A stretch of DNA of 63,920 bases, the filler included, from Dimorphilus gyrociliatus (taxonomy: Eukaryota > Animalia > Annelida): the NCBI GenBank assembly GCA_904063045.1. It is 5 parts of 5 records of this genome, joined end to end, with 100 filler letters (N's around TTAATTAATTAA, not from the genome) between each part and the next. Parts side by side here need not be neighbours in the genome. Positions count along the whole stretch, not along the records: positions 23,316 to 33,040 come from CAJFCJ010000283.1; 4 more parts are not named here. One strand, 5' to 3'. Positions 12,445 to 58,346 of the stretch are shown here, piece by piece (positions within the stretch are counted from its first letter, which is position 1; every line of letters starts with the position of its first letter). The notes under the pieces are model-generated. The model saw only the letters and a list, made by a program, of their open reading frames with translations, searched no databases and was not told the origin of the DNA. The translations under genes were made by a program, and so were the position numbers.

Positions 12445-12477
12445 TTTGATATCTCACAATCAATTAATTATTATTAC

Positions 12478-23315: not shown

Positions 23316-25390
23316 AAATTCTGTGATTTGCTGTTCTTGTTTGAATTAATTAACAGTTAAGTTTGCCTATGATCCTCTGTTTTATCTAACATGCTTACAA
23401 TGCTAATTGGATCATTAGATATAGGTAGAAAAAACAATGGCGTAGGAAAGTATATCCTCTTAATCAACTACAAAGCACCAACAATAGGACTAAAGTCTCT
23501 TTGAAGTCAAATCAAAGGCAGAAAAAATATTTTTTTTTTTGTATTTTGTAAAATCTGATTGCAGATTCGTAATCGGCTGAAAATTTCAATGAAAATTGAT
23601 ATATAGAACATGAATTTCTGATGAAAATTAAAGAATTTAGAATTTTCACCAAAAATTGGTATAAATGATAAAGGAATGTTGTTGACATGAAATGTTGTGG
23701 AGAAATGTATGTGTTTAATTTAATATTTTAATAAACTATTTCATGCTTTAATTATTCAACAAATATTCAAGTTTCATTAAAAAAATAAAAAATTTAAATA
23801 ACAGATATTTTTGAAGGAAATGAATAAAGAAAAATATGAATATGATTTTGATAATTCAGTGAATGGTTGTTATTTATATTTTAGAGGAATATGCACATAA
23901 AAAAGATGGTATTTGTAAGAGTATCAAAGCTTAATTAAACTAGTCAATTTTAAACATTTTCAAGGAAAAAATAAATTGGTCTCAATTAATATTCAATAAA
24001 AAAAAAAAAGCTTTTAACAAATTGTAAATACTTTGCTACGAAATTATCAAATGTCACAAGTTAATTGATATATTTCAATTAATCTTTCCTTCTCTGAACA
24101 GACAATTTAAACAAGCACATTTTGGATTAATTGTTGGGCATTAAACAAGTGCCAAACTGTTCATAGAACATTCATCCTTTGTGTCACAGTAGATTTTCAA
24201 ACAAACAATGCTGCCTTTATATACCTGATACTTCTCTAGTCTTACATTCGTTACCATAGAGTGAACACCTTGCAATTGCCAATTATCCTTGGTAAGCTAA
24301 TCACATTTTTTAACTTTTCAGGGGGAAATGCTTGGCCAAATATAGACATATTATATATCATTAGAATCGTCTTTTTACGCCCATTAACCTCAAGCAATCA
24401 GTGAAGGAATTGGACGAAAAAATATTTTACACATAAACGCTAAATGACAAATTTTTGCTATTTTTTCCACTCTATTTAACAATATTTTCCAACTTTTTTA
24501 CAGATATTTCAATTGCAACCAGTTGCCTTTTACCTGTTGCCTTACCACAGTTGACCTTTCACAGTTGCCTTACTAAAGTAGCCTTCTCAAGAGATTCTTC
24601 ACCAACCCATCACTGCCTTCTCTTCTCTTCTCTTTCCAAACCCAACATTCATATCTAATTCAAAGTAAGATATCTATTGTGAATTTTGGTCTATTCCTTG
24701 AACTTTGTTCTGAATTGACCAAATGTGTTTTATGTCAGGTTTTCTGGTTAATTCCTTTTCTTTTGAATCTGAATTTACCTGGTTTTTTAGGAAAGAAAAT
24801 GCTCTTATTTATAGTAATCTAATTTTGAGCAATGTTTCTATTAACAGAGAAACAGTTATCTTATTAGAAGTAGGAATAGCATCATTTGCTTTTGCTTTTA
24901 TAAGGTAGGCTTAAACTAAATAAGTTTTTGGTTTTTCCACCATAGTTTCTTTAATTTACATAATAGAAACTTGATTTTCTTAACATAAGGAGAGTAGACT
25001 ATGCCAAATTCAAATCAGTTAATGAAAATAATTTATCATTTGTAGTTTTTCTGTTATTTGCTGTTAAAATTTTTTTTTTAAGTCACTTTTTGCATAGAAA
25101 ACATTAAGATTTGACATATTTCTTTTCATGGATATTAGGTAATACACTAATTTAAGAAGAAGATTAGGCAGAGTTAACTTATGTAAAGTCTCTTTCTTTA
25201 AAAAATTAACTTTTTTAATCAAAAATATGTAAAGATGTTTAAATAGTAGGTATTACAAGGTAGTATTTCCTTGTGTATAGGAAAAAGTCTTTGCTCTTAA
25301 ATTAAATAATTAATATCAAATTTATATCAAGTTGTTAATCTGTGAGCTGTAGGCTGGTAAAAATTCTGTCAAATATTTAATTTTTGACAT

Positions 25391-26025
25391 TGTACAACTT
25401 TGGTTATATTTTACATGCTTGAACTCTATTATTTTATGCAACATATACATGTACATCTTAAAACCTACGCAAGAAAATGCTATAACATTGGCCAAACATA
25501 AGTCTGATTAGTCAGCTTGAAGGCTCATCTTTAATTACCAATAAAGGTTTGGCCAGGTTATAATTTAATTAACTTGCCTAGGGTGTGGCCAAGTTATAAT
25601 TCAATTAACCTTCCTAAATGTTGAACCTTGTAACATCCTGTTACTAAAGATAAATATGAACTACACATTTCGGCAACTGTAAAGTGATGATTGGATGTCA
25701 GAGACAAACCTCAAAGTATATAAATTCTCATTATTCTCATTTGGCATGCAGCTTCCATCTGGACCCAAGGACCTGGGAAAATCATCTGGAAACAACCTCC
25801 ACTGGAACCATCCATCTACTCCTCAACATTAGAAGACAGTTTGGTAATTTGGCAACCTGCTTTTACAAACTATCTACTCTGCTATCGAACTCTCATATTG
25901 TTACTTGCTTAAGTATTATTATTGCGAATAAACCATTTTAATTTAAACATTTGTTTAAAGGTTCGAGTAGAACCAGTATTGTTATAACTTGCAAACGCAT
26001 AGATTTTGCCAGCAAGAGCAGTACA
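25391..26025 (+). repeat. 5' LTR (635 bp) of Gypsy copy A (+ strand)
   Basis: TGTAC...GTACA termini, TATATAAA and AATAAA inside, followed by a PBS. Differs by only a few substitutions from 26370-27004 and 52461-53095. Confidence 0.95.
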
Positions 26026-26029
26026 AATT

Positions 26030-26047
26030 TGGCGCAGTCGACAGGAT
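26030..26047 (+). promoter_or_regulatory. Primer-binding site, probably tRNA-Ser
   Basis: TGGCGCAGTCGACAGGAT, 4 nt after the LTR. It is complementary to a tRNA 3' end ...AUCCUGUCGACUGCGCCA, which resembles animal tRNA-Ser acceptor stems as recalled. Confidence 0.8.
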
Positions 26048-26085
26048 ATTCTTTTGGTTTATTCAAAAGTTTTGAGAAAGTAAAT

Positions 26086-26369
26086 ATGGCAGAAGAAGGA
26101 AATGGAAACGCCACTGGGGCAGTTACAGACTCTAACCCTTCAACCCCAGCAACTCCAACAATTACAATTCAGCCAGCAGGAATGTCAGAAAGGCAACAAA
26201 GACTAATTGAAGACTATGATAGATTGGTGAGTGAAATGAAAAGAAATCGAATCACAATTCCAACAGATCATGGAGATGGAACACATCACCCAGCACAGAA
26301 CCCAAATGTTGATATCACAACAGTAATTCAAGCATTAAGGGCTGCTTGGGACCGCCCTCAAAGAACTAT
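26086..26369 (+). pseudogene. gag: gag N-terminus of copy A, interrupted by the inverted copy B
   Basis: ATG about 40 nt after the PBS (MAEEGNGNATG...). The frame runs directly into the LTR that starts at 26370. Confidence 0.75.
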
Positions 26370-27004
26370 TGTACTGCTCTTGCTGGCAAAATCTATGCGT
26401 TTGCAAGTTATAACAATACTGGTTCTACTCGAACCTTTAAACAAATGTTTAAATTAAAATGGTTTATTCGCAATAATAATACTTAAGCAAGTAACAATAT
26501 GAGAGTTCAATAGCAGAGTAGATAGTTTGTAATAGCAGGTTGCCAAATTACCAAACTGTCTTCCAATGTTGAGGAGTAGATGGATGGTTCCAGTGGAGGT
26601 TGTTTCCAGATGATTTTCCCAGGTCCTTGGGTCCAGATGGAAGCTGCATGCCAAATGAGAATAATGAGAATTTATATACTTTGAGGTTTGTCTCTGACAT
26701 CCAATCATCACTTTACAGTTGCCGAAATGTGTAGTTCATATTTATCTTTAGTAACAGGATGTTACAAGGTTCAACATTTAGGAAGGTTAATTGAATTATA
26801 ACTTGGCCACACCCTAGGCAAGTTAATTAAATTATAACCTGGCCAAACCTTTATTGGTAATTAAAGATGAGCCTTCAAGCTGACTAATCAGACTTATGTT
26901 TGGCCAATGTTATAGCATTTTCTTGCGTAGGTTTTAAGATGTACATGTATATGTTGCATAAAATAATAGAGTTCAAGCATGTAAAATATAACCAAAGTTG
27001 TACA
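26370..27004 (-). repeat. 3' LTR of copy B
   Basis: Reverse complement of 25391-26025; preceded on the minus strand by a PPT. Confidence 0.95.
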
Positions 27005-27005
27005 A

Positions 27006-27019
27006 CTTCCCCCTTCTTT
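27006..27019 (-). promoter_or_regulatory. Polypurine tract of copy B
   Basis: AAAGAAGGGGGAAG immediately before the 3' LTR. Confidence 0.88.
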
Positions 27020-27035
27020 GTGAAGATGAGTCCCT

Positions 27036-29455
27036 TCATCTTGATTTAATGAGAATTACAGGTGGTTGTTCTTCTTCATTAGTTTGATGTTGACTAAAGC
27101 TACAACTTTGTTTCATTAGTTTTGGGTTTTCAGGAGAGTTATCTGTGCTCTCACTTGGGGTAGCAATTTCTTCTCTTTGTTTTCTTCTTCCAATAATATA
27201 GTTGAAAATGATGATACATACCATTGACACTACAATACTCAAACAAATATTTCGTATGATAACATAAAGTGTTTTCCCAGGTTTATAGTACCAACTATGG
27301 AAAAACTTTTAATTCCAGATAAATTGGGTACAATGCCATTTTTCTCTGCAACAGTGACCATGTTATCATACCTTGCCTGCTTCTGTTCCAGTGAACTGAT
27401 AACTTGCTTAATTTTTGAGTGCTGGTATGCAATATCCTTCTTTACCCCATGGTGGAGTAGATCAGCTAATCTGGCAATTTCAATTTTTGGTTCAGAAAGG
27501 TGATTGTGGATATGTAACTGCATGGATTTTGCAGACACAGTGTGAAATCTGCATCCTCTTTCTGAATAATACACATACGTTTTGTCTTTCATTGGTTGGT
27601 TTCTTATAGGATTTAATGGGTTGTGAGTTGTTTTGTAGAATAACTTGTTAGACTTACACTCATTATAGGTAATCTCTTCAGGATTGACTTGCTGTAAAAC
27701 ATGAGTAACTGGTTCTACTTGGAAAAGCAGGTTGTTCATGGTGACAAGTAAAAATTGAGAACATTTGTTATTCTTTTTTATCATGCTTAAGTCACAAACT
27801 ACTTCTGTTGAGGCTATTGGTGAACATTGTTTAATTATAGCTAATTCTCCCATCTGACTACTGTGCATTCCCAACTCATTTGTTAACACTGTGGTCAATT
27901 GAGGATCCAAATTTGCTAGTAATGCCATCATTCTGCTTCTTTGAACAAATTGATTGCAGAGAAGACTTGACAGCTGTTGGGTAAACTTTTTTAAATTCTT
28001 AAAATTTGAATCAATACCATGTAGTAAGGTAGATGTTTGGGCAGCTTCTCTCATTTCCAATGGGAATTTGTGGTATGGGTTTTTACTTATCTTATGTTTC
28101 AGTTTTGCTTCCTTCTTCATCTGCTTTTTAGCCATTCTCATGTGTAGAGTAAAATAAATTCCTTCATAGGTAATCTTAAATTCTCTGGCTGGTGGTCCTT
28201 TATACCATATGCCCAATGTTGGTAATACCTTCTTTTTGATTCTTTTCTCACTGTATACATATTTTGAAATCGTGACAGATTGTCTTGTTGCCCTTGTCCA
28301 ATTGACTGCTTGCAGCATTTCTTGGATATAATAGTTATCCAGCTCCCAGTAAGATGGACTAATGGGTTGTTGTAGATGATATATCACAACTTCCTTGAGT
28401 GTGCCTTTATTTCTCATTAGTTTATACTTTGTGTTTGTTTCTCTGTACCATTGGTTAAGACTTGGTAAGGGGTTGTTTCGCTTGTATAGTATAATTTGTT
28501 CTTTAACTTTATTGGGATAGTTTAATAGTCGTTTTTCTTCATTTTTGCCAATCTTCTGATATTGTAGCAAATTGTATAGGTGTTCCTTGCTTGTTTCCTG
28601 TATTAAACTCTGTTCCTCCAGTGGTACTAGTACTTTTGTTCCAGGACCACCAATTCCATCAATAAACTTATCTTGATAAGGGATGTCCAGAATAGAATAC
28701 CCTGGACAAGAATAGTGACCAGCAAATTTGATACAACTAATTCTGTTGCTAATTTTTATCCATGGTGATTGTTGCCCAAGTGTGTAATTATTCTTGAGGT
28801 TCCTAAAGACAATAATTGCCTCTTCTGTTTCACAATAGGACTGCCCTGGTAAACAATCTTCCAGGTAGTCCAGATTAGTTGTAATTTTCATATTAGGAGG
28901 TTGCCAATATGCTTTGCCAAACTGGATAATTGTGGTGTATTCCAGCACCTTGGTCGTTGTTGGCCATGTGTAGGCAGCAGGAAACTGATCTTGGTGGATC
29001 CAAGTGTTTCTTTTCACCATTAAAGGTTTTCCTTGAAAAGATCGTTTGTCTTTTATCATCTGTCTGCATTGATCATGAGTTACTTTGATAACTGAGTTAA
29101 CAATCCTCCTCTTCTTTGCTCCAAAGAAATAGTAAGTGTAAAAATTAGTTCTTAGATACACTTGACATTTTACTGCTCTTGTTTCAATTTCTTCCAAGTT
29201 CAATTCATAGATATCAGCTGTAATTGTCTTGGTTTCTTGTGATTCTATATTACAAGTTGGCTCATCTGCTAGATCAAATGCCTGGCTTGGTAGTTGGTTA
29301 GAACAAAAGTATAATGGTGGTTTAAATGTTAAGGTAATGTTTGCACTTGTAACATGGGCACCTTGGTAGGATGGTTTTGGGACTGTTATTGAGTGGATGC
29401 AGCCACAGATCACCATTACAGTCATCACTAGTGGAAGCCACAACATCTGTTTCAT
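27036..29455 (-). CDS. env: Env: class III (gB-type) fusion glycoprotein, copy B, with a 1-bp deletion near 27306
   Basis: Signal-like MKQMLWLPLVMTVMVICGC, Cys-rich ectodomain and C-terminal TM. Nearly identical to the intact copy at 53127-55547. Confidence 0.85.
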
Positions 29456-29777
29456 GTTAGCTCTTCCTGTGTTGGCTATAGTTGAATGGTTGAAAATTTT
29501 GTGTTGTTGTTCCACTCTGATAGTTATTCCATCTTCTAACTCTATATATTGTGGTTCCACTTCTTGTTGGGAATCTAATTGTTCAGAGATGATTTTAGTC
29601 TCATCTAAAAATATGACTGACTCATTGTCTGTGTCACTTGTATTTTCTTTCTCATCTTGGGATGAATCTACCACTATGAGGGACTCATTATCGAATGGGT
29701 TATGTCAATAATTTCACCTTCAATAATTATTGACTCATTATCCGAATGGGTTATATCAATAATTTCGCTTTCAATAA

Positions 29778-31862
29778 TTATTGACTCATGTCTGAACTAG
29801 ATATTTCATCTTCTCTATCAGAGATAATGTTTGCCTCTGAATCTGTATTTTGATCCAGTTCATTATTTGTTTCTGTGTCATCACTTTCAGATGAGCTTGA
29901 AGGTTCATTGAGACTGTAATTACTGTCTGTTTTGAAAGTATTGCTTGTGTCATAACCAGTATCAGAATTAGTAACTTCCATCTCTGAGTCATCACTATCT
30001 GAACTTTCTGATGAAGAGTCATGCTGTCCCATCATGGCTATAGTGACTTTGTTTAGTTGAGGTTGCCTTATTCTTTCAGCCAGGTTCCCTTTCCTTCTAT
30101 CAAATTTGAGAGAACACTGTTTAGCTTCAAAATTGAGGTTTGCTCCCACAGTTTGTAGGAAATCACAACCAAGTATTATTGCTATGTCTAGATTTTCCAT
30201 AACTATAAATTCTTGTTCCATACTTTCTCCAGCAAATTGGATATTCAGCTTTACGCTTCCTTTTTGCTTTAAAGCTTTCCCATCAGCTGAAGTTATAATT
30301 GGTAAGCCAATTGTTTCTTTATCCATAATTGTAACATCCATTAACTTGATTTCTTTTTCAGTAATAAAGGATCTCAATGCTCCTGTGTCACACAAGGCAA
30401 TGACTTCTTGGCCTTTTTGATTCTTCAAACGGAATTGGAAGTCATTTCTTCCTTCTACCTGAGAAAGATATTGGAGGTGTGTTATTTCCTTCTCCACAAG
30501 GTGAAAGATTGTTGTTGCTTCTTTCCCTGTTTCCAACTTATTAGATTCATTGGCTAGTCTTAATCTGCTACCATGTACCAACTTGCATGTATTATCATCC
30601 ATTTGTATTTCATATATCCACTTTTGATGATTGACTTTTGTTATTCGGTATGGGCCTAACCATTTTAAAGAAGGGATTTTTGTTATTGCAATTCTTGCAG
30701 CATCATTTCTTAAGAATACTTCATCATCAACCTCAAAATATTTTGGAAGATTGAGATTTCTATTCTTTCTTTCCCTATATTGTTCTTTTGCCATGATGGA
30801 TTTACAGAAGGCTGTAGCTCTTAACTGTACCAATTGCTGCTGGTGATTGAATACAAATAGTACATTTGTTTCAGGAGAGGTAGTATGCATTGTTACATCA
30901 ATCAGTGTTCTTGTGCTGGTGCCAAAAAGAAGTTCCTGGGGTGGTAGTCTTGTACTTCCTACAGGTGATTGATTCAAAAATGCTTGAATCAAGGGTAGGT
31001 TTGCAACCCAGTTATGCTGATTTTCTTCCACCACTAATTTATTGATTTCCTTCCTCACTTCTCTATTTCTTCGTTCAACTAGTCCATTGCTCTGGCTTCT
31101 ATAAGCTGTTGTTTGGATTTTCTCAATACCTAATACCTTCATAAACTCTTTAAAAGCTTTACCAACAAAGTTTCTTCCTTGATCTGTCAACATTTGTTTT
31201 GGAATTCCAAAAATGGGAAAAAATCTGTTGAAAAGAAGGTTTGCAATTTCTTTACTGGTTTGCTGTTTGAGTGCATATAAAACTGTGTATCTACTGAAAT
31301 GATCCACTATCACAAGTATGAATCTGTATGACTTAACCATGGGTAAGGGTCCCATTATATCCATGGCTACCAACTCCATTGGTGATGCAGGGTGAAAGGT
31401 TTCTACCAAAGGGTATACTCTACTCCTACCATTCATTTGTTCACACAAAGTGCAATCCTTTATTGAATTCTCAATCATAATCTTTAATTTTGGGTGCCAA
31501 AAGGTCTTTGTAATTATTTGTAATGTCATTCTGGGTCCATGGTGATTGTGAATTTTATTTTTATGGAATTTAGGGAGCAGAGTTAGCATCAAATGGTCAG
31601 GTAAAACCAGAATGTTTCTTTCTTCAAGGATAATCCAGATCATTTCCTTGTGAACAAACATCTCCATTATGAAAGGTGTAAAAGTTCCAAAATAAGGAAT
31701 AGGTAGCTGACCATCCAATGTTAAATATTCTTTAATTGATTTTAAATTCACATCTTTTTCTTGCTCTGACTGTAAGTCAACAGAAGACAAATCAATTTTC
31801 TCTTCACTGTTATCACTGGTAGCTACAAAAGTTAACTCTGGTGTATGTTCATACTGTTCCAT
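29778..31862 (-). CDS. pol: Integrase (HHCC, DDE, GPY/F) followed in frame by an aspartic protease and an acidic linker
   Basis: HNHHG...CTLC, VAMDIMGPLP, LTDQGRNF, SNGLVERRN and WLGPYRI, then ALCDTGALRSFI...IILGCDFL. Confidence 0.92.
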   Translation of the reverse strand: MEQYEHTPELTFVATSDNSEEKIDLSSVDLQSEQEKDVNLKSIKEYLTLDGQLPIPYFGTFTPFIMEMFVHKEMIWIILEERNILVLPDHLMLTLLPKFHKNKIHNHHGPRMTLQIITKTFWHPKLKIMIENSIKDCTLCEQMNGRSRVYPLVETFHPASPMELVAMDIMGPLPMVKSYRFILVIVDHFSRYTVLYALKQQTSKEIANLLFNRFFPIFGIPKQMLTDQGRNFVGKAFKEFMKVLGIEKIQTTAYRSQSNGLVERRNREVRKEINKLVVEENQHNWVANLPLIQAFLNQSPVGSTRLPPQELLFGTSTRTLIDVTMHTTSPETNVLFVFNHQQQLVQLRATAFCKSIMAKEQYRERKNRNLNLPKYFEVDDEVFLRNDAARIAITKIPSLKWLGPYRITKVNHQKWIYEIQMDDNTCKLVHGSRLRLANESNKLETGKEATTIFHLVEKEITHLQYLSQVEGRNDFQFRLKNQKGQEVIALCDTGALRSFITEKEIKLMDVTIMDKETIGLPIITSADGKALKQKGSVKLNIQFAGESMEQEFIVMENLDIAIILGCDFLQTVGANLNFEAKQCSLKFDRRKGNLAERIRQPQLNKVTIAMMGQHDSSSESSDSDDSEMEVTNSDTGYDTSNTFKTDSNYSLNEPSSSSESDDTETNNELDQNTDSEANIISDREDEISSSDMSQ

Positions 31863-31982
31863 TTTAACTGAAATAGAGGGAGAATTCTCCTTTTTGATCT
31901 TCCATGAATTAGCTCTTCAAATGTTACTTTCCTTGGGGGTGTATATTCTTCTAATCTTGTTAATGCATCTGCTCTATTTTTT

Positions 31983-32524
31983 TCATCCTGTCACATAGTT
32001 AATTGTAAATTTTAAATCCATTAAAGCCATGACCCATTTTGCTGTGCTGACATTCAATTTGTTTTGCTTAAATGTTTGTACTAGACTCTGATGGTCAGTA
32101 TATAAAAAGAATGGCTTGTCTTGAAGGTAATGTAAAAATTTCTTTACAACCCAGTAAACACCAAATGCTTCCTTTTGATAGGCTGCATATTTCATTTGAT
32201 TATTGTTGAATTGTTTTGAAGCATAGGCAATGGGTTTCATTGTTTTCTTCCCATTCTCATCTACATAAACTTGTTCAAGAACTCCTCCTACAGCTACATT
32301 GATGATGCATCTGTTGTTAATTGAAAATCTTTAGCAAAATCAGGTAGTTGTAATACAGGAGGGTTAACTACTGCATCTCTCAACTTGAAAAATGATTGCT
32401 TGGCTTCCTCAGTCCATTGCAATTTATCCTTTTTCCCATGTAGTTTCATTAACATATACAGAGGTTTAGCTACTCTTTGCAAAATCTTGTTAAATTTTTC
32501 TGTAATAGCCACAAAATGCAACAA
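31983..32524 (-). pseudogene. Gypsy RNase H region, frameshifted
   Basis: PPVLQLPDF..FQLTTDAS, PIAYAS, KEAFGVYW and FFLYTDHQSL. Confidence 0.9.
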
Positions 32525-32642
32525 AGCTTAGTAGTGAATTTGCAAACACTGGTGCTGTAAATTATATAATTTATCTGTCTTGGACTTATCTGTTTCAATC
32601 CCCTTTTCTGATACAATGTGTCCCAAGAATTGAACTTGTTCT

Positions 32643-33040
32643 TCAAAACACACATTTACTTAGTTTAATCTTAAAATTGTACTTTTGAATCTGTTGAAGA
32701 ATGGTCTCCAATGCTTCCCAATGTTGGTCCAGCGACTTGGTAAATATTATTATGTCATCAAGGTAGTTTAGGCACAAATGCTTTACATCCTTTAGCACAA
32801 ATGAATTCATTACATAACTAAAATGAGGAGGGGCATTGGTTAATCCAAAAGGCATCTTAATAAATTCAAACAAGCCAAAAGGTGTAATAAATGCTGTTTT
32901 AGACCTATCTTCTTTCTTGATGTTAATGTGGTGGTATGCACTTGTCAAATCCATTGTAGAAAAGAATTTATTTCCTCCTCCCAAATGGTCAAAAAGATCA
33001 TCTTGATTTGGCAGTGGATACTTGTTTTTTAACTGTCATT
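32643..33040 (-). pseudogene. Gypsy reverse transcriptase, partial (contig end)
   Basis: KYPLPNQDDL, DLTSAYHHI, KTAFITPFGLFEF..MPFGLTNAP and YLDDIIIF. Confidence 0.93.
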
Positions 33041-33140
33041 NNNNNNNNNNNNNNNNNNNNNNNNNNNNNNNNNNNNNNNNNNNNTTAATTAATTAANNNN
33101 NNNNNNNNNNNNNNNNNNNNNNNNNNNNNNNNNNNNNNNN
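33041..33140. other. Artificial contig spacer 2
   Basis: 44 N + TTAATTAATTAA + 44 N. Confidence 0.98.
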
Positions 33141-33295
33141 TAAAGCTGTAATTGTGAGTGGTGATTACTTTTAATACTAATGTAAAAATTGTCATGGAAG
33201 TACCCCTTTATTTTCTTAAAATAAAAATAAAATTTCCCAATAAGAATACATTGCCAATTATAGAACTTAGATCAATTTTTTTTATTTATGGAATT

Positions 33296-33545
33296 AAATT
33301 TTACTTTCAGAAATAAAATATTCTACTTTTAGTAGTATAAATTGCTTTTATTATCATAAACTTTTTAAAGATTCTATTTTGGTAATCAAGTAATAAAATT
33401 TTACTTTCAGAAATAAAATATTCTACTTTTAGCAAAGTATATTACTTTTATTATCATAAACTTTAAGAAGATTTTATTTTAGTAATCAAGTAATAAATTT
33501 TTTTTTAAAAAACAAAATATTCTACTTTTAGTAAAGTATATTACT
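33296..33545. repeat. About 100-bp tandem repeat, 2.5 copies
   Basis: aaattttactttcagaaataaaatattctactttt... recurs at 100-bp spacing. Confidence 0.8.
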
Positions 33546-33607
33546 TGTTTTATAAAAAATTTAATATTTTAATATCAATTGTTAGTATAAAACAATAATA
33601 AACGAAA

Positions 33608-34591
33608 TTAAAGTAAAAATATTCCTTTATTTTTACATTCACTCTGGATTTCATCAGTCCAAATGCTTACTTGTACTTCTCCAATGTGCTTTTTATTTAA
33701 AAGAAACATACACAACCTTGATTGACCAATACCACCACCAATAGAATATGGCAGATTTCCATTTAACAATTCCTTATGAAATGGAAGTTCAGCTCTATCT
33801 TCAGTATTAGTCAACTTCATTTGACTTTTACATACTTCAGGAGAAACACGAACACCCATTGAACTTAATTCTAGTCCTAAATCCAATGCTTCATGATATA
33901 CAATTAAATCTCCATTTAAGTTCCAATCATCATAATCAGGTGCTCTTAAATCATGCTCTTTACCAGATAAGAGCTTATGTCCTATTTTTCTTATAAAAAT
34001 AGCTCCTTTCTGTTTACATAACTCATTTTCTCTCATTTTAGGAGTCAAATCAGGAAACATATCTTCTAATTCTTGAGAATCGATAAAAAATATATTTTCT
34101 GGCAATTCTTTTACTTTTACCTGGTACTTCTCAATGATAACTTTTTGGGTTTCTTTTATACTTTGATATATTTTCTTAACAGTAGAATCTAAATAGGAAA
34201 TAGTTCTATCTGATTCAGTAATAGATTTTTCCCAGTCCCACTGATCAACATAAAATGAGGTTGTATTAGACAAAATTTCATCTCTTCTAATAGCATTCAT
34301 ATCAGTATAAAGACCAGTTCCAATCTCAAAACCATATTTCTTAAGAGCAGCTCTTTTCCATTTCGCTAAAGAAAAAAGGGTAACCGCACTTCCATCAACA
34401 CTTTCCATATCAAATTTTATCTGTCTTTCTACACCATTTAAATTATCATTCAAACCAGAGTTAGCAGGAAGGAAAAGAGGAGCTGAAACTCTTTGTAATT
34501 TTAAATTATCTGATATTAGACCTTGAAACATACATTTAATGTCAAAAATCGCCTTTTCTGTATCTTTTAGGGACAGTGTAGTAGATGTCAT
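33608..34591 (-). CDS. asnA: Aspartate-ammonia ligase (asparagine synthetase A)
   Basis: SLAKWKR, GLYTDMNAIRRDE, YVDQWDWEK, RAPDYDDW, ELSSMGVRV, SIGGGIGQSRLCM and HIGEVQ. Confidence 0.96.
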   Translation of the reverse strand: MTSTTLSLKDTEKAIFDIKCMFQGLISDNLKLQRVSAPLFLPANSGLNDNLNGVERQIKFDMESVDGSAVTLFSLAKWKRAALKKYGFEIGTGLYTDMNAIRRDEILSNTTSFYVDQWDWEKSITESDRTISYLDSTVKKIYQSIKETQKVIIEKYQVKVKELPENIFFIDSQELEDMFPDLTPKMRENELCKQKGAIFIRKIGHKLLSGKEHDLRAPDYDDWNLNGDLIVYHEALDLGLELSSMGVRVSPEVCKSQMKLTNTEDRAELPFHKELLNGNLPYSIGGGIGQSRLCMFLLNKKHIGEVQVSIWTDEIQSECKNKGIFLL

Positions 34592-34839
34592 TGTAAAGGG
34601 TTAAATTTTAAGATCTTTTTATAAAAATTTTGTTTTCAAATTTAGTTTAAAATCACATTATTTACAAATTTATAGAAATGTTATAAAATTGCTGGATAAG
34701 GAAAGGAAATAAAAACGATAAAAAATGATAAAAAAACGACAATTTTCATATTTTTAAATAAATTTACTACTTATAGTAAAACTTCCATAAAAAGTATTAA
34801 CTTAATAATAATGAAAAACAAAATTATTTTAAGAAACTT

Positions 34840-35330
34840 AAATTATTTTTTAATAAATTATTTTTACAATAGAATTAAATTATGAATTTAAATTATAGAT
34901 TTTTTGTTAATAAACTTAAATTATGAATTATTTTTTAATAAATTATTTTTACAATAGAATTAAATTATGAATTTTTTTTAATAGAATTATTTTTTACAAT
35001 AGAATTATTTTCTTAATAAATTTAAATTATAGATTTTTTTTATGAATTATTTTTTTTTAATAGAATTATTTTTTAATAGAATTATTTTTTAATAAATTAT
35101 TTTTTACAATAGAATTATTTTTTAATAAATTATTTTTTACAATAGAATTTTTTTTTAATAGAATTATTTTTTTTTATAAATTATTTTTTTATAAATTATT
35201 TTTTTTAATAGAATTATTTTTTTTAATAGAATTATTTTTTACAATAGAATTATTTTCTTAATAAATTTAAATTATAGATTTTTTTATGAATTATTTTTTT
35301 TTATAAATTATTTTTTATGTATTATTTAAT
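34840..35330. repeat. AT-rich degenerate satellite (AATAGAATTATTTTTT-type units)
   Basis: Many tandem variants visible directly. Confidence 0.8.
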
Positions 35331-35342
35331 TTTATCCTTACA

Positions 35343-35849
35343 ATGATAGAAGATGTTATTAAGTATTGTTTAGAAAAAAGATTACCATTGTATGTAATTA
35401 GTTTATCTTGTAATTTTTATAGAAAATATTCTAAAATAATTAAAAATTTAAATAAAGACTTAGAAAAAGATAATAAATTAATTAAAACTTGTGTTTCTTT
35501 AGCTTGTAAATGTGAAGGATTGAATTCATTGGAATTAGATACTTTAATTGAACAAGACATTATAGAAAAATTATCTTTTGATTTAAATCATAAATGTCCA
35601 TTTTTAAGAATGTCTGGTCTTATTATTCTTTTACAAGAGAAAGATTTTATTTTAGAAGATAATATATTTGAAAATAGTATTAATAGAATGAATTATTTAT
35701 TAAAATTAAAAGATTATGATGAATTTAATGTAAATGAATTAGCTTTAGCTGCTTTAAATCAGTTTAATAATGAATTTATGAATTTAGATTTAAAATTAGA
35801 TAAAAATAAAATATTAAGTTTAAGAAAAATTTTAGAAGATATTAAATAG
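35343..35849 (+). CDS. Hypothetical protein, 168 aa
   Basis: Clean intronless ORF in very AT-rich DNA, preceded by ATCCTTACA-ATG. No recognisable motif. Confidence 0.6.
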   Translation: MIEDVIKYCLEKRLPLYVISLSCNFYRKYSKIIKNLNKDLEKDNKLIKTCVSLACKCEGLNSLELDTLIEQDIIEKLSFDLNHKCPFLRMSGLIILLQEKDFILEDNIFENSINRMNYLLKLKDYDEFNVNELALAALNQFNNEFMNLDLKLDKNKILSLRKILEDIK

Positions 35850-35942
35850 AATAAGATAATAATAATTAATTTAGGTTTATGTGGATTTATATTTTAATAA
35901 ATAAATATTATTATTTATATTAGTTTTTAGGTATTAAATATA

Positions 35943-37423
35943 CAGTGTGTAAAAAAAAAGTGGTCACCCATATTTTTGTCGATTAATATATAATTTGATT
36001 CTTTTATTCTGAATAAGTCTATACCAAATGTTTCATAATTAATCATTAAAGCTTTTCTATATTTTAAATTTTTCTGCTTATTTTACTTTTAATTATTTTA
36101 ATGAAAAATGTCTTTAAGACTGTAAAAAAAAAGTGGTCATTTATTGAAATCTACCTTCCCTCCACTTTGGTATAAAAATAAAATAGCAAATATACCCAAC
36201 ATGGGTCTACACTACTCTAACCAAAAGAAAGGAGAAATAATAGGGATGAAGAATTCAGGGATTCCTCTTAGGAAAATTTCTATAATTTTAGGGATTCCGT
36301 GTTCATCTGTACAGAAAATCGTGAAAAAGGCAGATGAATATGATAAAATAGGACATATGGGAGGAAATGGAAGGCCTCAAAAACTTACAGATCAAAATAT
36401 AGAACTTCTATATAAGGAAGTAAAAAATGATAACACTATATCTTGCAGAAAGTTAGTAGGAAAGTTGAAAGAAAAACAAGGTATAGACTGCTCACATATG
36501 ACAGTCAAAAATTACCTAAATAAGTTAGACTTTATATCGGCTTCACCGATAAAAAAACCACTTCTTCAACCAAGGCACATAATCAACCGTTTTGAAGCTA
36601 GTAAGAGGTGGATAAAAATGCCTGAAAGTAGAGTTAAAACAATGGTTTTTAGCGATGAATGTAAATTTAATTTATTAAATTCAGATGGAAATGTAAAGAT
36701 ATGGAAAACTAGAGGAGAAACTATTACTTCTAAAAATGTTCGGGGTACCCTACAATCTGGAGGAGGATCTGTTATGGTATGGGGGTGTTTTTCGTATCAT
36801 GGTGTTGGAGAAATCAAATTTATCGATGTAAAAATGGATGCAGCATACTACTGCAATATGTTAAGCTCTTGTTTGTTTAACTCGGCCTCTAAAATGGGAT
36901 TATCTGATTTTATTTTTGTACAAGATAACGATCCCAAGCATACAAGTAAGCTAGCAAAGGAATTTTTCAGAGAGAATGATATTAAAGTTGAAAGCTGGCC
37001 TTCTCAATCTCCTGATTGCAACCCTATAGAAAACTTGTGGGCAATAATCAAGGCCAAAATAGGAAATAAAATGTTTAAAACAAGAAACGAATTAAAGGCT
37101 GCTATAACAGAAGAATGGAATAAAATACAAGTAGAAACGTGTCAGAAGCTGGCTTTATCCTTTAAAAAAAGAGCATTGTTACTTTATAGAGCAAAAGGAG
37201 GATATATTATGAAATAAATGATAGTGACCACTTTTTTTTTTACAGTCTTAAAGACATTTTTCATTAAAATAATTAAAAATAAGATAAGCAGAAAAATTTA
37301 AAATATAGAAATAATTTAATGATTGATTATAAGACATTTGGTATAGACTTATTCTGAATAAAAGAATCAAATTATTTATTAATCGACAAAAATATGGGTG
37401 ACCACTTTTTTTTTTACACACTG
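35943..37423 (+). mobile_element. Intact Tc1-family element with IR-DR ends
   Basis: TA TSD (35941-35942, 37424-37425), CAGTG...CACTG ends and TIRs of about 200 bp, each bounded by the direct repeat TGTAAAAAAAAAGTGGTCA. Confidence 0.96.
36201..37217 (+). CDS. Tc1 DD34E transposase; probable start at ATG 36201
   Basis: FSDECKF, QDNDPKH and WPSQSPDCNPIENLW with 34 residues between D2 and E. N-terminal HTH. Confidence 0.95.
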   Translation: MGLHYSNQKKGEIIGMKNSGIPLRKISIILGIPCSSVQKIVKKADEYDKIGHMGGNGRPQKLTDQNIELLYKEVKNDNTISCRKLVGKLKEKQGIDCSHMTVKNYLNKLDFISASPIKKPLLQPRHIINRFEASKRWIKMPESRVKTMVFSDECKFNLLNSDGNVKIWKTRGETITSKNVRGTLQSGGGSVMVWGCFSYHGVGEIKFIDVKMDAAYYCNMLSSCLFNSASKMGLSDFIFVQDNDPKHTSKLAKEFFRENDIKVESWPSQSPDCNPIENLWAIIKAKIGNKMFKTRNELKAAITEEWNKIQVETCQKLALSFKKRALLLYRAKGGYIMK

Positions 37424-42674: not shown

Positions 42675-42679
42675 ATTCA

Positions 42680-43190: not shown

Positions 43191-43191
43191 T

Positions 43192-46972: not shown

Positions 46973-47330
46973 TGTCTCATCATTGCAACAGTTATTTTGA
47001 ATTGTTGACTTTGGTTATGCTGTCTAGTCCTTTTTCTGCAAAGCAATGGGAGGGAGACTTGTTTGTTTTCAAAGTCAATATTAGCTCCCACACTATGTAG
47101 GAAATCACACCCAAGTATTATGGCTATGTCCAACTTTTTCATAACAATAAATTCTTGTTCCATGGTTCCTCCAGCAAACTGGATTTTGATTATTGCTGTT
47201 CCTTTGGGCTTTAAAACCTTACCTTCTGCTGAAGTTATGACTGGTACACCAGTTAGTTCTTTGTCCATAATTTGAAGGTCCATTGAAATATAATTTTAAG
47301 TACAAAGCACCAGCTTGAATTGTTAGCAAA
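46972..47330 (-). mobile_element. Retroelement aspartic-protease relic, paralogous to the post-integrase PR
   Basis: PVITSAEGKVLKPKG...MEQEFIVMKKLDIAIILGCDFL..VGANIDFE versus PIITSADGKALKQKG...MEQEFIVMENLDIAIILGCDFL..VGANLNFE. The DTG region is decayed. Confidence 0.88.
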
Positions 47331-52438: not shown

Positions 52439-52460
52439 ATGTGTGGAACACGCATTTTAT

Positions 52461-53095
52461 TGTACTGCTCTTGCTGGCAAAATCTATGCGTTTGCAAGTT
52501 ATAACAATACTGGTTCTACTCGAACCTTTAAACAAATGTTTAAATTAAAATGGTTTATTCGCAATAATAATACTTAAGCAAGTAACAATATGAGAGTTCG
52601 ATAGCAGAGTAGATAGTTTGTAATAGCAGGTTGCCAAATTACCAAACTGTCTTCCAATGTTGAGGAGTAGATGGATGGTTCCAGTGGAGGTTGTTTCCAG
52701 ATGATTTTCCCAGGTCCTTGGGTCCAGATGGAAGCTGCATGCCAAATGAGAATAATGAGGATTTATATACTTTGAGGTTTGTCTCTGACATCCAATCATC
52801 ACTTTACAGTTGCCGAAATGTGTAGTTCATATTTATCTTTAGTAACAGGATGTTACAAGGTTCAACATTTAGGAAGGTTAATTGAATTATAACTTGGCCA
52901 CACCCTAGGCAAGTTAATTAAATTATAACTTGGCCAAACCTTTATTGGTAATTAAAGATGAGCCTTCAAGCTGACTAATCAGACTTATGTTTGGCCAATG
53001 TTATAGCATTTTCTTGCGTAGGTTTTAAGATGTACATGTATATGTTGCATAAAATAATAGAGTTCAAGCATGTAAAATATAACCAAAGTTGTACA
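52461..53095 (-). repeat. 3' LTR of copy C
   Basis: 635 bp, TG...CA, with PPT at 53097-53110. Confidence 0.95.
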
Positions 53096-53126
53096 ACTTC
53101 CCCCTTCTTTGTGAAGATGAGTCCCT

Positions 53127-56100
53127 TCATCTTGATTTAATGAGAATTACAGGTGGTTGTTCTTCTTCATTAGTTTGATGTTGACTAAAGCTACAACTTT
53201 GTTTCATTAGTTTTGGGTTTTCAGGAGAGTTATCTGTGCTCTCACTTGGGGTAGCAATTTCTTCTCTTTGTTTTCTTCTTCCAATAATATAGTTGAAAAT
53301 GATGATACATACCATTGACACTACAATACTCAAACAAATATTTCGTATGATAACATAAAGTGTTTTCCCAGGTTTATAGTACCAACTATGGAAAAACTGT
53401 TTAATTCCAGATAAATTGGGTACAATGCCATTTTTCTCTGCAACAGTGACCATGTTATCATACCTTGCCTGCTTCTGTTCCAGTGAACTGATAACTTGCT
53501 TAATTTTTGAGTGCTGGTATGCAATATCCTTCTTTACCCCATGGTGGAGTAGATCAGCTAATCTGGCAATTTCAATTTTTGGTTCAGAAAGGTGATTGTG
53601 GATATGTAACTGCATGGATTTTGCAGACACAGTGTGAAATCTGCATCCTCTTTCTGAATAATACACATACGTTTTGTCTTTCATTGGTTGGTTTCTTATA
53701 GGATTTAATGGGTTGTGAGTTGTTTTGTAGAATAACTTGTTAGACTTACACTCATTATAGGTAATCTCTTCAGGATTGACTTGCTGTAAAACATGAGTAA
53801 CTGGTTCTACTTGGAAAAGCAGGTTGTTCATGGTGACAAGTAAAAATTGAGAACATTTGTTATTCTTTTTTATCATGCTTAAGTCACAAACTACTTCTGT
53901 TGAGGCTATTGGTGAACATTGTTTAATTATAGCTAATTCTCCCATCTGACTACTGTGCATTCCCAACTCATTTGTTAACACTGTGGTCAATTGAGGATCC
54001 AAATTTGCTAGTAATGCCATCATTCTGCTTCTTTGAACAAATTGATTGCAGAGAAGACTTGACAGCTGTTGGGTAAACTTTTTTAAATTCTTAAAATTTG
54101 AATCAATACCATGTAGTAAGGTAGATGTTTGGGCAGCTTCTCTCATTTCCAATGGGAATTTGTGGTATGGGTTTTTACTTATCTTATGTTTCAGTTTTGC
54201 TTCCTTCTTCATCTGCTTTTTAGCCATTCTCATGTGTAGAGTAAAATAAATTCCTTCATAGGTAATCTTAAATTCTCTGGCTGGTGGTCCTTTATACCAT
54301 ATGCCCAATGTTGGTAATACCTTCTTTTTGATTCTTTTCTCACTGTATACATATTTTGAAATCGTCACAGATTGTCTTGTTGCCCTTGTCCAATTGACTG
54401 CTTGCAGCATTTCTTGGATATAATAGTTATCCAGCTCCCAGTAAGATGGACTAATGGGTTGTTGTAGATGATATATCACAACTTCCTTGAGTGTGCCTTT
54501 ATTTCTCATTAGTTTATACTTTGTGTTTGTTTCTCTGTACCATTGGTTAAGACTTGGTAAGGGGTTGTTTCGCTTGTATAGTATAATTTGTTCTTTAACT
54601 TTATTGGGATAGTTTAATAGTCGTTTTTCTTCATTTTTGCCAATCTTCTGATATTGTAGCAAATTGTATAGGTGTTCCTTGCTTGTTTCCTGTATTAAAC
54701 TCTGTTCCTCCAGTGGTACTAGTACTTTTGTTCCAGGACCACCAATTCCATCAATAAACTTATCTTGATAAGGGATGTCCAGAATAGAATACCCTGGACA
54801 AGAATAGTGACCAGCAAATTTGATACAACTAATTCTGTTGCTAATTTTTATCCATGGTGATTGTTGCCCAAGTGTGTAATTATTCTTGAGGTTTCTAAAG
54901 ACAATAATTGCCTCTTCTGTCTCACAATAGGACTGCCCTGGTAAACAATCTTCCAGGTAGTCCAGATTAGTTGTAATTTTCATATTAGGAGGTTGCCAAT
55001 ATGCTTTGCCAAACTGGATAATTGTGGTGTATTCCAGCACCTTGGTCGTTGTTGGCCATGTGTAGGCAGCAGGAAACTGATCTTGGTGGATCCAAGTGTT
55101 TCTTTTCACCATTAAAGGTTTTCCTTGAAAAGATCGTTTGTCTTTTATCATCTGTCTGCATTGATCATGAGTTACTTTGATAACTGAGTTAACAATCCTC
55201 CTCTTCTTTGCTCCAAAGAAATAGTAAGTGTAAAAATTAGTTCTTAGATACACTTGACATTTTACTGCTCTTGTTTCAATTTCTTCCAAGTTCAATTCAT
55301 AGATATCAGCTGTAATTGTCTTGGTTTCTTGTGATTCTATATTACAAGTTGGCTCATCTGCTAGATCAAATGCCTGGCTTGGTAGTTGGTTAGAACAAAA
55401 GTATAACGGTGGTTTAAATGTTAAGGTAATGTTTGCACTTGTAACATGGGCACCTTGGTAGGATGGTTTTGGGACTGTTATTGAGTGGATGCAGCCACAG
55501 ATCACCATTACAGTCATCACTAGTGGAAGCCACAACATCTGTTTCATGTTAGCTCTTCCTGTGTTGGCTATAGTTGAATGGTTGAAAGTTTTGTGTTGTT
55601 GTTCCACTCTGATAGTTATTCCATCTTCTAACTCTATATATTGTGGTTCCACTTCTTGTTGGGAATCTAATTGTTCAGAGATGATTTTAGTCTCATCTAA
55701 AAATATGACTGACTCATTGTCTGTGTCACTTGTATTTTCTTTCTCATCTTGGGATGAATCTACCACTATGAGGGACTCATTATTCGAATGGGTTATGTCA
55801 ATAATTTCACCTTCAATAATTATTGACTCATTATCCGAATGGGTTATATCAATAATTTCGCTTTCAATAGTTATTGACTCATTGTCTGAACTAGATATTT
55901 CATCTTCTCTATCAGAGATAATGTTTGCCTCTGAATCTGTATTTTTATCCAGTTCATTATTTGTTTCTGTGTCATCACTTTCAGATGAGCTTGAAGGTTC
56001 ATTGAGACTGTAATTACTGTCTGTTTTGAAAGTATTGCTTGTGTCATAACCAGTATCAGAATTAGTAACTTCCATCTCTGAGTCATCACTATCTGAACTT

Positions 56101-56294
56101 TCTGATGAAGAGTCATGCTGTCCCATCATGGCTATAGTGACTTTGTTTAGTTGAGGTTGCCTTATTCTTTCAGCCAGGTTCCCTTTCCTTCTATCAAATT
56201 TGAGAGAACACTGTTTAGCTTCAAAATTGAGGTTTGCTCCCACAGTTTGTAGGAAATCACAACCAAGTATTATTGCTATGTCTAGATTTTCCAT
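53127..56294 (-). CDS. env: PR C-terminus, acidic linker and intact class III Env in one frame (Env proper starts at about Met 55547)
   Basis: 1055-aa ORF with an internal signal-like segment, fusion-loop-like YYFFG and YTWP, gB-like central helix and TM anchor. Confidence 0.88.
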   Translation of the reverse strand: MENLDIAIILGCDFLQTVGANLNFEAKQCSLKFDRRKGNLAERIRQPQLNKVTIAMMGQHDSSSESSDSDDSEMEVTNSDTGYDTSNTFKTDSNYSLNEPSSSSESDDTETNNELDKNTDSEANIISDREDEISSSDNESITIESEIIDITHSDNESIIIEGEIIDITHSNNESLIVVDSSQDEKENTSDTDNESVIFLDETKIISEQLDSQQEVEPQYIELEDGITIRVEQQHKTFNHSTIANTGRANMKQMLWLPLVMTVMVICGCIHSITVPKPSYQGAHVTSANITLTFKPPLYFCSNQLPSQAFDLADEPTCNIESQETKTITADIYELNLEEIETRAVKCQVYLRTNFYTYYFFGAKKRRIVNSVIKVTHDQCRQMIKDKRSFQGKPLMVKRNTWIHQDQFPAAYTWPTTTKVLEYTTIIQFGKAYWQPPNMKITTNLDYLEDCLPGQSYCETEEAIIVFRNLKNNYTLGQQSPWIKISNRISCIKFAGHYSCPGYSILDIPYQDKFIDGIGGPGTKVLVPLEEQSLIQETSKEHLYNLLQYQKIGKNEEKRLLNYPNKVKEQIILYKRNNPLPSLNQWYRETNTKYKLMRNKGTLKEVVIYHLQQPISPSYWELDNYYIQEMLQAVNWTRATRQSVTISKYVYSEKRIKKKVLPTLGIWYKGPPAREFKITYEGIYFTLHMRMAKKQMKKEAKLKHKISKNPYHKFPLEMREAAQTSTLLHGIDSNFKNLKKFTQQLSSLLCNQFVQRSRMMALLANLDPQLTTVLTNELGMHSSQMGELAIIKQCSPIASTEVVCDLSMIKKNNKCSQFLLVTMNNLLFQVEPVTHVLQQVNPEEITYNECKSNKLFYKTTHNPLNPIRNQPMKDKTYVYYSERGCRFHTVSAKSMQLHIHNHLSEPKIEIARLADLLHHGVKKDIAYQHSKIKQVISSLEQKQARYDNMVTVAEKNGIVPNLSGIKQFFHSWYYKPGKTLYVIIRNICLSIVVSMVCIIIFNYIIGRRKQREEIATPSESTDNSPENPKLMKQSCSFSQHQTNEEEQPPVILIKSR

Positions 56295-56433
56295 AACTAT
56301 AAATTCTTGTTCATACTTTCTCCAGCAAATTGGATATTCAGCTTTACGCTTCCTTTTTGCTTTAAAGCTTTCCCATCAGCTGAAGTTATAATTGGTAAGC
56401 CAATTGTTTCTTTATCCATAATTGTAACATCCA

Positions 56434-57954
56434 TTAACTTGATTTCTTTTCAGTAATAAAGGATCTCAATGCTCCTGTGTCACACAAGGCAATGACTTCT
56501 TGGCCTTTTTGATTCTTCAAACGGAATTGGAAGTCATTTCTTCCTTCTACCTGAGAAAGATATTGGAGGTGTGTTATTTCCTTCTCCACAAGGTGAAAGA
56601 TTGTTGTTGCTTCTTTCCCTGTTTCCAACTTATTAGATTCATTGGCTAGTCTTAATCTGCTACCATGTACCAACTTGCATGTATTATCATCCATTTGTAT
56701 TTCATATATCCACTTTTGATGATTGACTTTTGTTATTCGGTATGGGCCTAACCATTTTAAAGAAGGGATTTTTGTTATTGCAATTCTTGCAGCATCATTT
56801 CTTAAGAATACTTCATCATCAACCTCAAAATATTTTGGAAGATTGAGATTTCTATTCTTTCTTTCCCTATATTGTTCTTTTGCCATGATGGATTTACAGA
56901 AGGCTGTAGCTCTTAACTGTACCAATTGCTGCTGGTGATTGAATACAAATAGTACATTTGTTTCAGGAGAGGTAGTATGCATTGTTACATCAATCAGTGT
57001 TCTTGTGCTGGTGCCAAAAAGAAGTTCCTGGGGTGGTAGTCTTGTACTTCCTACAGGTGATTGATTCAAAAATGCTTGAATCAAGGGTAGGTTTGCAACC
57101 CAGTTATGCTGATTTTCTTCCACCACTAATTTATTGATTTCCTTCCTCACTTCTCTATTTCTTCGTTCAACTAGTCCATTGCTCTGGCTTCTATAAGCTG
57201 TTGTTTGGATTTTCTCAATACCTAATACCTTCATAAACTCTTTAAAAGCTTTACCAACAAAGTTTCTTCCTTGATCTGTCAACATTTGTTTTGGAATTCC
57301 AAAAATGGGAAAAAATCTGTTGAAAAGAAGGTTTGCAATTTCTTTACTGGTTTGCTGTTTGAGTGCATATAAAACTGTGTATCTACTGAAATGATCCACT
57401 ATCACAAGTATGAATCTGTATGACTTAACCATGGGTAAGGGTCCCATTATATCCATGGCTACCAACTCCATTGGTGATGCAGGGTGAAAGGTTTCTACCA
57501 AAGGGTATACTCTACTCCTACCATTCATTTGTTCACACAAAGTGCAATCCTTTATTGAATTCTCAATCATAATCTTTAATTTTGGGTGCCAAAAGGTCTT
57601 TGTAATTATTTGTAATGTCATTCTGGGTCCATGGTGATTGTGAATTTTATTTTTATGGAATTTAGGGAGCAGAGTTAGCATCAAATGGTCAGGTAAAACC
57701 AGAATGTTTCTTTCTTCAAGGATAATCCAGATCATTTCCTTGTGAACAAACATCTCCATTATGAAAGGTGTAAAAGTTCCAAAATAAGGAATAGGTAGCT
57801 GACCATCCAATGTTAAATATTCTTTAATTGATTTTAAATTCACATCTTTTTCTTGCTCTGACTGTAAGTCAACAGAAGACAAATCAATTTTCTCTTCACT
57901 GTTATCACTGGTAGCTACAAAAGTTAACTCTGGTGTATGTTCATACTGTTCCAT
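56434..57954 (-). CDS. pol: Integrase plus PR N-terminus (DTG at 56473-56481), copy C
   Basis: Identical to the copy B translation up to a 1-bp loss near 56450. Confidence 0.92.
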   Translation of the reverse strand: MEQYEHTPELTFVATSDNSEEKIDLSSVDLQSEQEKDVNLKSIKEYLTLDGQLPIPYFGTFTPFIMEMFVHKEMIWIILEERNILVLPDHLMLTLLPKFHKNKIHNHHGPRMTLQIITKTFWHPKLKIMIENSIKDCTLCEQMNGRSRVYPLVETFHPASPMELVAMDIMGPLPMVKSYRFILVIVDHFSRYTVLYALKQQTSKEIANLLFNRFFPIFGIPKQMLTDQGRNFVGKAFKEFMKVLGIEKIQTTAYRSQSNGLVERRNREVRKEINKLVVEENQHNWVANLPLIQAFLNQSPVGSTRLPPQELLFGTSTRTLIDVTMHTTSPETNVLFVFNHQQQLVQLRATAFCKSIMAKEQYRERKNRNLNLPKYFEVDDEVFLRNDAARIAITKIPSLKWLGPYRITKVNHQKWIYEIQMDDNTCKLVHGSRLRLANESNKLETGKEATTIFHLVEKEITHLQYLSQVEGRNDFQFRLKNQKGQEVIALCDTGALRSFITEKKSS

Positions 57955-58346
57955 TTTAACTGAAATAGAGGGAGAATTCTCCTTTTGATCTTTCCATGAA
58001 TTAGCTCTTCAAATGTTACTTTCCTTGGGGGTGTATATTCTTCTAATCTTGTTAATGCATCTGCTCTATTTTTTCGTCCTGTCACATAGTTAATTGTAAA
58101 TTTTAAATCCATTAAAGCCATGACCCATTTTGCTGTGCTGACATTCAATTTGTTTTGCTTAAATGTTTGTACTAGACTCTGATGGTCAGTATATAAAAAG
58201 AATGGCTTGTCTTGAAGGTAATGTAAAAATTTCTTTACAACCCAGTAAACCCCAAATGCTTCCTTTTGATAGGCTGCATATTTCATTTGATTATTGTTGA
58301 ATTGTTTTGAAGCGTAGGCAATGGGTTTCATTGTTTTCTTCCCATT
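57924..58346 (-). CDS. RNase H C-terminal half, copy C
   Basis: PIAYAS...YTDHQSL...YVTGRKNRADALTR. Confidence 0.9.
   Translation of the reverse strand, partial: NGKKTMKPIAYASKQFNNNQMKYAAYQKEAFGVYWVVKKFLHYLQDKPFFLYTDHQSLVQTFKQNKLNVSTAKWVMALMDLKFTINYVTGRKNRADALTRLEEYTPPRKVTFEELIHGKIKRRILPLFQLKWNSMNIHQS

Follow-up and report, generated by a model that had tools for sequence, protein, structure and literature searches.

An in-frame retropepsin behind the integrase and ahead of Env in a Ty3/gypsy element of the annelid Dimorphilus gyrociliatus, probably as a second protease

In LTR retroelements the protease (PR) is taken to have a fixed position upstream of reverse transcriptase (RT), and the locus described here raises the question of what it means when a protease-spacer block lies in frame between the integrase (INT) and the Env of an element that has recently been multiplying. 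A preliminary description of this DNA had posed the choice between a relocated protease and a second one. That choice stands, and we regard a second protease, beside a diverged one between gag and RT (PR-RT-RH-INT-PR-Env, where RH is RNase H), as likely, with a probability of about 0.6, whereas a sole, relocated protease appears possible but rather doubtful.

The window, i.e. the whole stretch of 63,920 nucleotides that was analysed, is made up of five contigs with artificial N-linkers between them. Two copies of the LTR element lie on its minus strand, at 26367-32255 (copy 1) and 52458-58346 (copy 2), and are 99.6% identical, differing by 13 substitutions and 8 single-base gaps. As had been pointed out before, both contigs end short of the canonical protease position, copy 1 being cut inside RT at 33040 and copy 2 inside RNase H at 58346. 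The features are as follows.

23216-23315, 33041-33140, 45206-45305 and 58347-58446: contig joins, each with a 12-nt spacer between two 44-N runs
25390..26368, plus strand: oppositely oriented family copy, with 5' LTR (25390-26026), primer-binding site (PBS) from 26030 and gag ATG at 26086
26369..27019, minus strand: 3' LTR of copy 1 (LTR proper 26369-27005, 637 bp) and the preceding polypurine tract (PPT)
27040..29455, minus strand: Env of copy 1, comprising a Cys-containing ectodomain between an internal signal sequence (at 29455, MKQMLW...) and a C-terminal transmembrane helix
29498..30050, minus strand: spacer rich in acidic residues and serine that follows the protease and contains a 51-nt tandem repeat; its frame is open in copy 2 and broken in copy 1
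30090..30515, minus strand: post-integrase retropepsin of copy 1, bounded by the putative N-terminal cleavage site TTIFHL and the C-terminal strand (Pfam, fold, motifs)
30560..31830, minus strand: integrase of copy 1, with HHCC zinc finger, DDE core, GPY/F and SH3-like C-terminal domain (Pfam, motifs)
31986..33035, minus strand: RNase H and a partial RT, truncated at the contig end, of copy 1 (Pfam RVT_1, RT_RNaseH), with frame breaks in the assembly
46973..47284, minus strand: relic of the same protease lineage, a C-terminal fragment without the DTG, 73.6% identical in nucleotides
52460..58346, minus strand: copy 2, with the end of RNase H, integrase, protease, spacer, Env, PPT and 3' LTR (52460-53096)

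LTR termini, PBS and PPT are all present, the PPT preceding both 3' LTRs; the 5' end is supplied by another copy than the 3' end, and one contig of the public run X3 links the two. The plus-strand copy, whose gag matches the gene model P0112, is truncated where the LTR of copy 1 begins, and the LTRs differ at 3-4 of 637 sites. The 3' LTR of copy 1 thus adjoins the gag of an opposite copy (25390-27005), by nested insertion or misassembly; in run X1 gag runs on past 26368/26369, and run X3 links gag to RT. Elsewhere the window holds a BEL/Pao element (8421-12725, minus strand) with 253-bp LTRs that are 96.4% identical and a broken pol. The contigs at 33141-45205 and 58447-63920 are very AT-rich, with many 1-kb bins at 13-25% GC, and the former carries an uninterrupted AsnA ORF (33608-34600, E 2e-96) and, flanked by inverted repeats, a Tc1/mariner transposase (36126-37217). 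These contigs probably come from another organism co-assembled with the worm, which we guess to be a microsporidian.

In copy 1, a stop-free frame of 712 aa (29778-31916, minus strand) contains the integrase followed by a complete retropepsin. Pfam places Integrase_H2C2 at aa 106-162, rve at aa 178-273 and RVP_2 at aa 508-604, the last at 30.7 bits against a cut-off of 20.3, and RVP likewise exceeds its cut-off. The motifs follow in order on the minus strand (GPY 30656-30648, DTG 30389-30381, SADG 30290-30279, ILGCDFL 30176-30156), GPY and DTG being 89 aa apart in frame, and the domain has the D-T/S-G triad, the flap, the hydrophobic-G-x-D-F motif and the fold of clan AA retropepsins. A protease model built with 46 relatives (pLDDT 79) matches the Ddi1 RVP and the HIV-1 and EIAV proteases (Foldseek E ~1e-6 to 3e-5); a single-sequence model of the integrase tail and protease reached a pLDDT of only 33, the only PDB sequence matches were weak ones to ASPRV1 (E 0.05), and the ESM Atlas score of 0.79 is a lead only. 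The gypsy-type RT, the RNase H and the GPY/F integrase, in the order RT-RH-INT, are those of Metaviridae. Copia and Gmr1-like elements carry the integrase before RT, which is not the order seen here. No Chromo match was found in the integrase-protease frame or the copy 2 frame (E 0.05), nor in 30390-30860 (E 10), with a scan that does detect the chromodomain in P0005/P0110.

For copy 1, then, the Pfam matches, the DTG and the fold bear out a real protease behind the integrase in frame. That it is intact in both copies, as had been proposed, is true of copy 1; in copy 2 the DTG (56473-56481) is in frame with the integrase, but this frame stops at 56434 and the protease, as assembled, is spread over three frames with two breaks after the DTG. 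The frame breaks of the two copies are single-base gaps, mostly at different places, and among the 12 of 27 differences listed between the public runs and the window there are single-base gaps in the broken regions. Their nature and differing places suggest that the breaks are probably assembly errors.

Such breaks are numerous, and the inverted LTR junction at 26368/26369 finds no support among the 15 of 28 run joints listed, which could speak for an assembly chimera or a nested insertion as the source of the whole arrangement. The junctions are, however, spanned by single contigs of independent runs, namely X1 (5,579 nt, 28030-33040, running from RT into Env), X3 (3,230 nt, 28095-31322) and X5 (3,128 nt, 29515-32700), and run contigs cross from RT to Env without a branch; therefore the integrase-protease arrangement is not an artefact of assembly. 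Since it is also common to both window copies, and a scan of the window detected no LTR or long repeat flanking the block, the premise that this is not a nested element holds, and we consider a chimera or insertion highly improbable. Contigs of X5 skip segments of 59-66 nt (30302-30361, 26686-26751 and 27623-27681) whose GT...AG ends lie on the plus strand, in antisense orientation to the element. The skip of 60 nt at 30302-30361 occurs in the dominant X5 contig. These segments look like spliced antisense RNA, perhaps related to silencing. A further run, X7, bears the species label of X1 and contains nearly none of the element's words, and possibly represents a strain without the family; neither this absence nor the small share of run X6 was counted as evidence.

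Downstream of the protease, about half of the spacer residues over aa 621-712 are D, E or S. The signal sequence and transmembrane helix of Env were called from hydropathy, and the Env of copy 1 has one frame break near its 3' end. In copy 2 an open frame of 1,082 aa (53127-56375) contains the C-terminal half of the protease, the spacer, the signal sequence, the ectodomain and the transmembrane helix. Its aa 22-164 correspond to aa 567-709 of the copy 1 frame (143 residues, one mismatch), after which copy 2 is stop-free through Env; because of this overlap, Pol, from the integrase on, and Env appear to form a single frame. Env may also be made from a spliced RNA starting at the ATG at 29455. 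It has no Pfam match and no PDB sequence match, and the ESM Atlas points to gp64/chuvirus/rhabdovirus glycoprotein clusters (class III fusogens) at 0.88, as a lead only.

Where the block came from is indicated by its relatives. Among 109 matches to the integrase-tail/protease region, the closest protease is that of P0002 (42% over 109 aa), which lies directly after Gag; the match to the window starts at the gag/PR boundary, and the P0002 capsid is 31% identical to that of the window family. In a protease tree of 46 chosen rows, in which the bootstrap had not settled, the window protease, the relic and P0002 group at 99/98, with the short P0119 fragment outside. The closest RTs are those of P0119 (66%) and P0134 (61%), which form a clade with the window RT at 100/100 (47 chosen rows). 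Upstream of its RT, P0119 has the C-terminal end of a protease (37% over 41 aa to the window's), and P0134, a spliced gene model, has a spacer motif matching the last ~50 aa of the window spacer (59% over 54 aa, E 8e-15); at loose ends of an X3 contig, the sister-family spacer motif continues as in P0134 and not into the Env leader. As the orthologous protease and the spacer motif are found ahead of RT in relatives, the block sits transplanted between integrase and Env leader. Judged from these alignments, it is the normal protease-spacer block of the lineage, now in a new place, and not a nested element.

Further searches added no closer relative: none of 535 candidates among proteins of 1,247-3,560 aa scored against the integrase-tail/protease region, none of 50, 3 and 7 pattern matches in metagenome and viral contigs was confirmed with the integrase-protease frame or P0002, and RT scans of metagenome and viral contigs gave nothing over 50% identity. 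P0003 was a spurious match to filamin-like repeats.

The relic had been taken to show that this protease lineage is not brand new. It does belong to the lineage and is evidence of its age, but being a C-terminal fragment without DTG and without an integrase upstream, it is silent on the position of the protease. Nei-Gojobori dN/dS between the post-integrase protease and the relic is ~0.30-0.35 over 85-105 codons, a value that does not indicate the position at which selection acted. The locus is covered by one X5 contig (46700-47328) and is lacking in X1, X2 and X3. In an NCBI gene model that includes a TIR domain (P0001; window 45722-47268, minus strand), the relic makes up the 5' end, either by exonisation or through a model error.

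Could the block be a mere passenger, a captured piece of a sister element whose frame stayed open without a role in its present place? The selection measured against the relic may predate the move, and in gene models such as P0045 a protease after integrase results just from two merged elements. All protease motifs are nevertheless intact, the block boundaries coincide with putative cleavage sites and have no flanking LTR or long repeat, the junctions are common to both copies and to the X1, X3 and X5 contigs, and no 80%-alike donor was seen, all of which makes a passenger improbable. P0045, P0122, P0125, P0126, P0130, P0135, P0151 and similar entries, in which RT or RH is repeated, were treated as merged neighbours and left out of the count of precedents.

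Whether another protease exists upstream depends on the interval between gag and RT. An X3 contig of 2,967 nt links the gag start (26370) to RT (33029), with 1,677 nt between, of which the length is used here. From capsid motif to RT anchor this gives 556 codons, where 564 are predicted with a protease and 403 without one. The observed length thus fits a retained protease, at most 8 codons from the one prediction and 153 codons over the other, although the predictions combine the spacings of P0002, the window protease and P0119, of which P0002 and P0119 may not represent one element, and the low-complexity Gag tail of P0002 weakens them. In P0110, ~600 aa separate capsid and protease, and with so long a tail a protease-free Gag could also fill the interval.

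If duplication of the block was followed by loss of the original, a single protease would mature the whole polyprotein of a Gag-RT-RH-INT-PR-Env element, a multicopy and recently mobile enveloped gypsy element. The post-integrase domain is orthologous to the canonical protease of relatives, and its divergence is about that expected beside RT (37-42% identity for the protease, 56-66% for RT), while the gag/PR site and the PR-RT spacer travelled with it. No X1 or X3 contig adds depth to the post-integrase protease at 80% likeness, and in all four runs the relic was matched only by post-integrase contigs and the X5 contig of the relic locus, in a search blind below 80%. With no 80%-alike paralogue in the runs, any upstream copy must be less than 80% alike; as far as these runs indicate, a recent duplication is excluded, and an old duplication or a move remains. 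The spacer motif, too, is missing from the X3 contig that joins gag to RT, though the sister family's copy of the motif is detected. Lastly, a matching published element is labelled GAG-POL in the available part of its description (PMC13524379), and if the two are fused, the position of the protease would be free.

Against a sole protease stand, besides the interval length, the gypsy elements in which the domain order could be followed. A total of 93 loci were fetched as gypsy-type RT matches of at most 50% identity; they are unrelated and, having been picked by RT patterns, form no random sample. Of these loci, 68 extend 1.5 kb or more upstream of RT, and 66 of the 68 hold an upstream protease; in L074 it lies beyond the limit, and in L071 there is a C-terminal remnant in a broken frame. 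The canonical protease is also kept in all four other lineages with an extra one (L062/L077, P0110, P0038 and P0108). Interval length and precedents together favour PR-RT-RH-INT-PR-Env over the new pol order RT-RH-INT-PR-Env put forward in the preliminary description, and we regard the sole protease as unlikely, though worth keeping in mind. If the upstream protease were absent, the pol order would be new, the third pol arrangement among LTR retroelements, with a membrane-proximal enzyme maturing capsid, enzymes and envelope.

The preliminary description knew of no LTR group with a protease downstream of integrase, which does not hold. Among 29 loci with at least 600 nt past the integrase, two, L062 and L077, of one lineage, have such a protease, retain the upstream one and go on, still in frame, to a membrane protein.

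L077:3-7109 and L062:1-6663: gypsy polyproteins, PR-RT-RH-INT-PR2-degenerate PR3-ankyrin repeats-membrane protein

These metagenome polyproteins and the window element share PR-RT-RH-INT-SH3-PR2, on the second-protease reading, at near-identical spacing (GPY to DTG 86-87 aa, against 89 in the window). They differ in that PR2 is only 26% identical and is followed by a degenerate third protease and ankyrin repeats, with no class III Env recognised; downstream are separate ORFs, one of them a DEDD-type exonuclease (RNase_T in L077). From these differences their PR2 probably arose independently of the window's, although a single clade of the window element and L062/L077 is not rejected by RT alone (AU p 0.156). 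No description of polyproteins of this type was found in the literature searched.

Extra proteases occur at three other places in unrelated gypsy polyproteins, each time with the first one kept: after the Env transmembrane region in P0110/P0005, a Gag-Pol-chromo-Env protein of 3,129 aa; between RH and INT, beside a weak OTU-like match, in P0038/P0113/P0096; and as two tandem proteases before RT in P0108. In two lineages (L062/L077 and P0110) they stand beside membrane-protein cassettes. This suggests that fused Pol-Env precursors are processed in a recurrent manner that apparently has not been reported, and annotation centred on RT and integrase may overlook or mislabel such domains.

How the second protease could have arisen and acted can be outlined as follows. 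Template switching during reverse transcription would have placed a copy of a normal protease-plus-spacer block between the integrase and the signal sequence of Env. Translation would give one (Gag-)Pol-PR-Env polyprotein, the internal signal sequence of which may tether the Pol-Env precursor to the ER. Retropepsins dimerise and cut at hydrophobic strand sites, and the post-integrase protease would likewise homodimerise and cut itself at the flanking hydrophobic sites TTIFHL and KVTIAMM. Cuts around it would free the integrase from the membrane-anchored Env precursor, signal peptidase would release the Env ectodomain, and capsid maturation would be left to the upstream protease. The role in Env release that had been suggested is plausible. 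P0110, however, has a single-ORF Pol-Env and no protease after the integrase, so that Env release does not need a second protease at this place. In the available text on Atlas, of the Belpaoviridae (PMC9094657), and on planarian Burro (PMC6431247), Env is likewise fused in frame with Gag-Pol and needs proteolytic release, and no post-integrase protease is mentioned for these elements, which differ in superfamily or Env position. Given all three, the benefit may perhaps lie in timing and not in necessity.

The element is very likely one already published, as Dingle or Dgyr_errantivirus_1, the match resting on PBS, LTR length and span and not on sequence. According to the part of PMC13524379 available to us, this element, in full Annelida_Polychaeta_Dgyr_errantivirus_1, agrees with the window in all 12 nt of the PBS, which lies 3 nt past the LTR, and has LTRs of 631/636 bp (637 bp in the window) and a span of 9,315 nt, compared with 9,319 nt computed for the window element; 7 copies and an Env of the HSV/gB type are listed. 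The same text reports a chromodomain at the C-terminus of errantivirus Pol, whereas Pfam finds none in the window, and the Env stop of the window copy does not account for the end of the listed region (11,589). There the word 'protease' occurs once, for the standard scheme, and none is placed after the integrase. Dingle (Dinophilidae Gypsy-like elements) is the most abundant Ty3/gypsy LTR element of D. gyrociliatus and carries a gB-like env downstream of integrase (PMC7854359 / bioRxiv 10.1101/2020.05.07.078311, in the text available). The gB-type assignment is that of these two papers for Dingle and the errantivirus. In the available text of PMC7854359 no element protease is named, the sole 'protease' match being a reagent, and the domain drawing in its Extended Data Fig. 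3d may show one. Among the NCBI gene models of D. gyrociliatus, P0112 is the family's Gag start (97%), P0001 the relic and P0134 the sister pol; in a gag search one of 80 candidates scored, namely P0112, whose model departs from gag after ~200 aa.

For bdelloid elements only PR-RT-RH-IN is reported in the accessible part of PMC5408684. The post-integrase protease order was not found in the literature searched, and figures as well as Repbase, Dfam and GyDB may already show it; the feature itself is real, apparently unremarked in that literature and borne by a probably known element, as a variant of Ty3/gypsy organisation. With the Metaviridae as profiled (PMC7879559, where the PBS is given as 18 nt), the window element shares LTRs, PBS, PPT, gag, the RT-RH-INT order and an env downstream of integrase, and it departs from them in the protease between integrase and Env and in an Env that is in frame with Pol.
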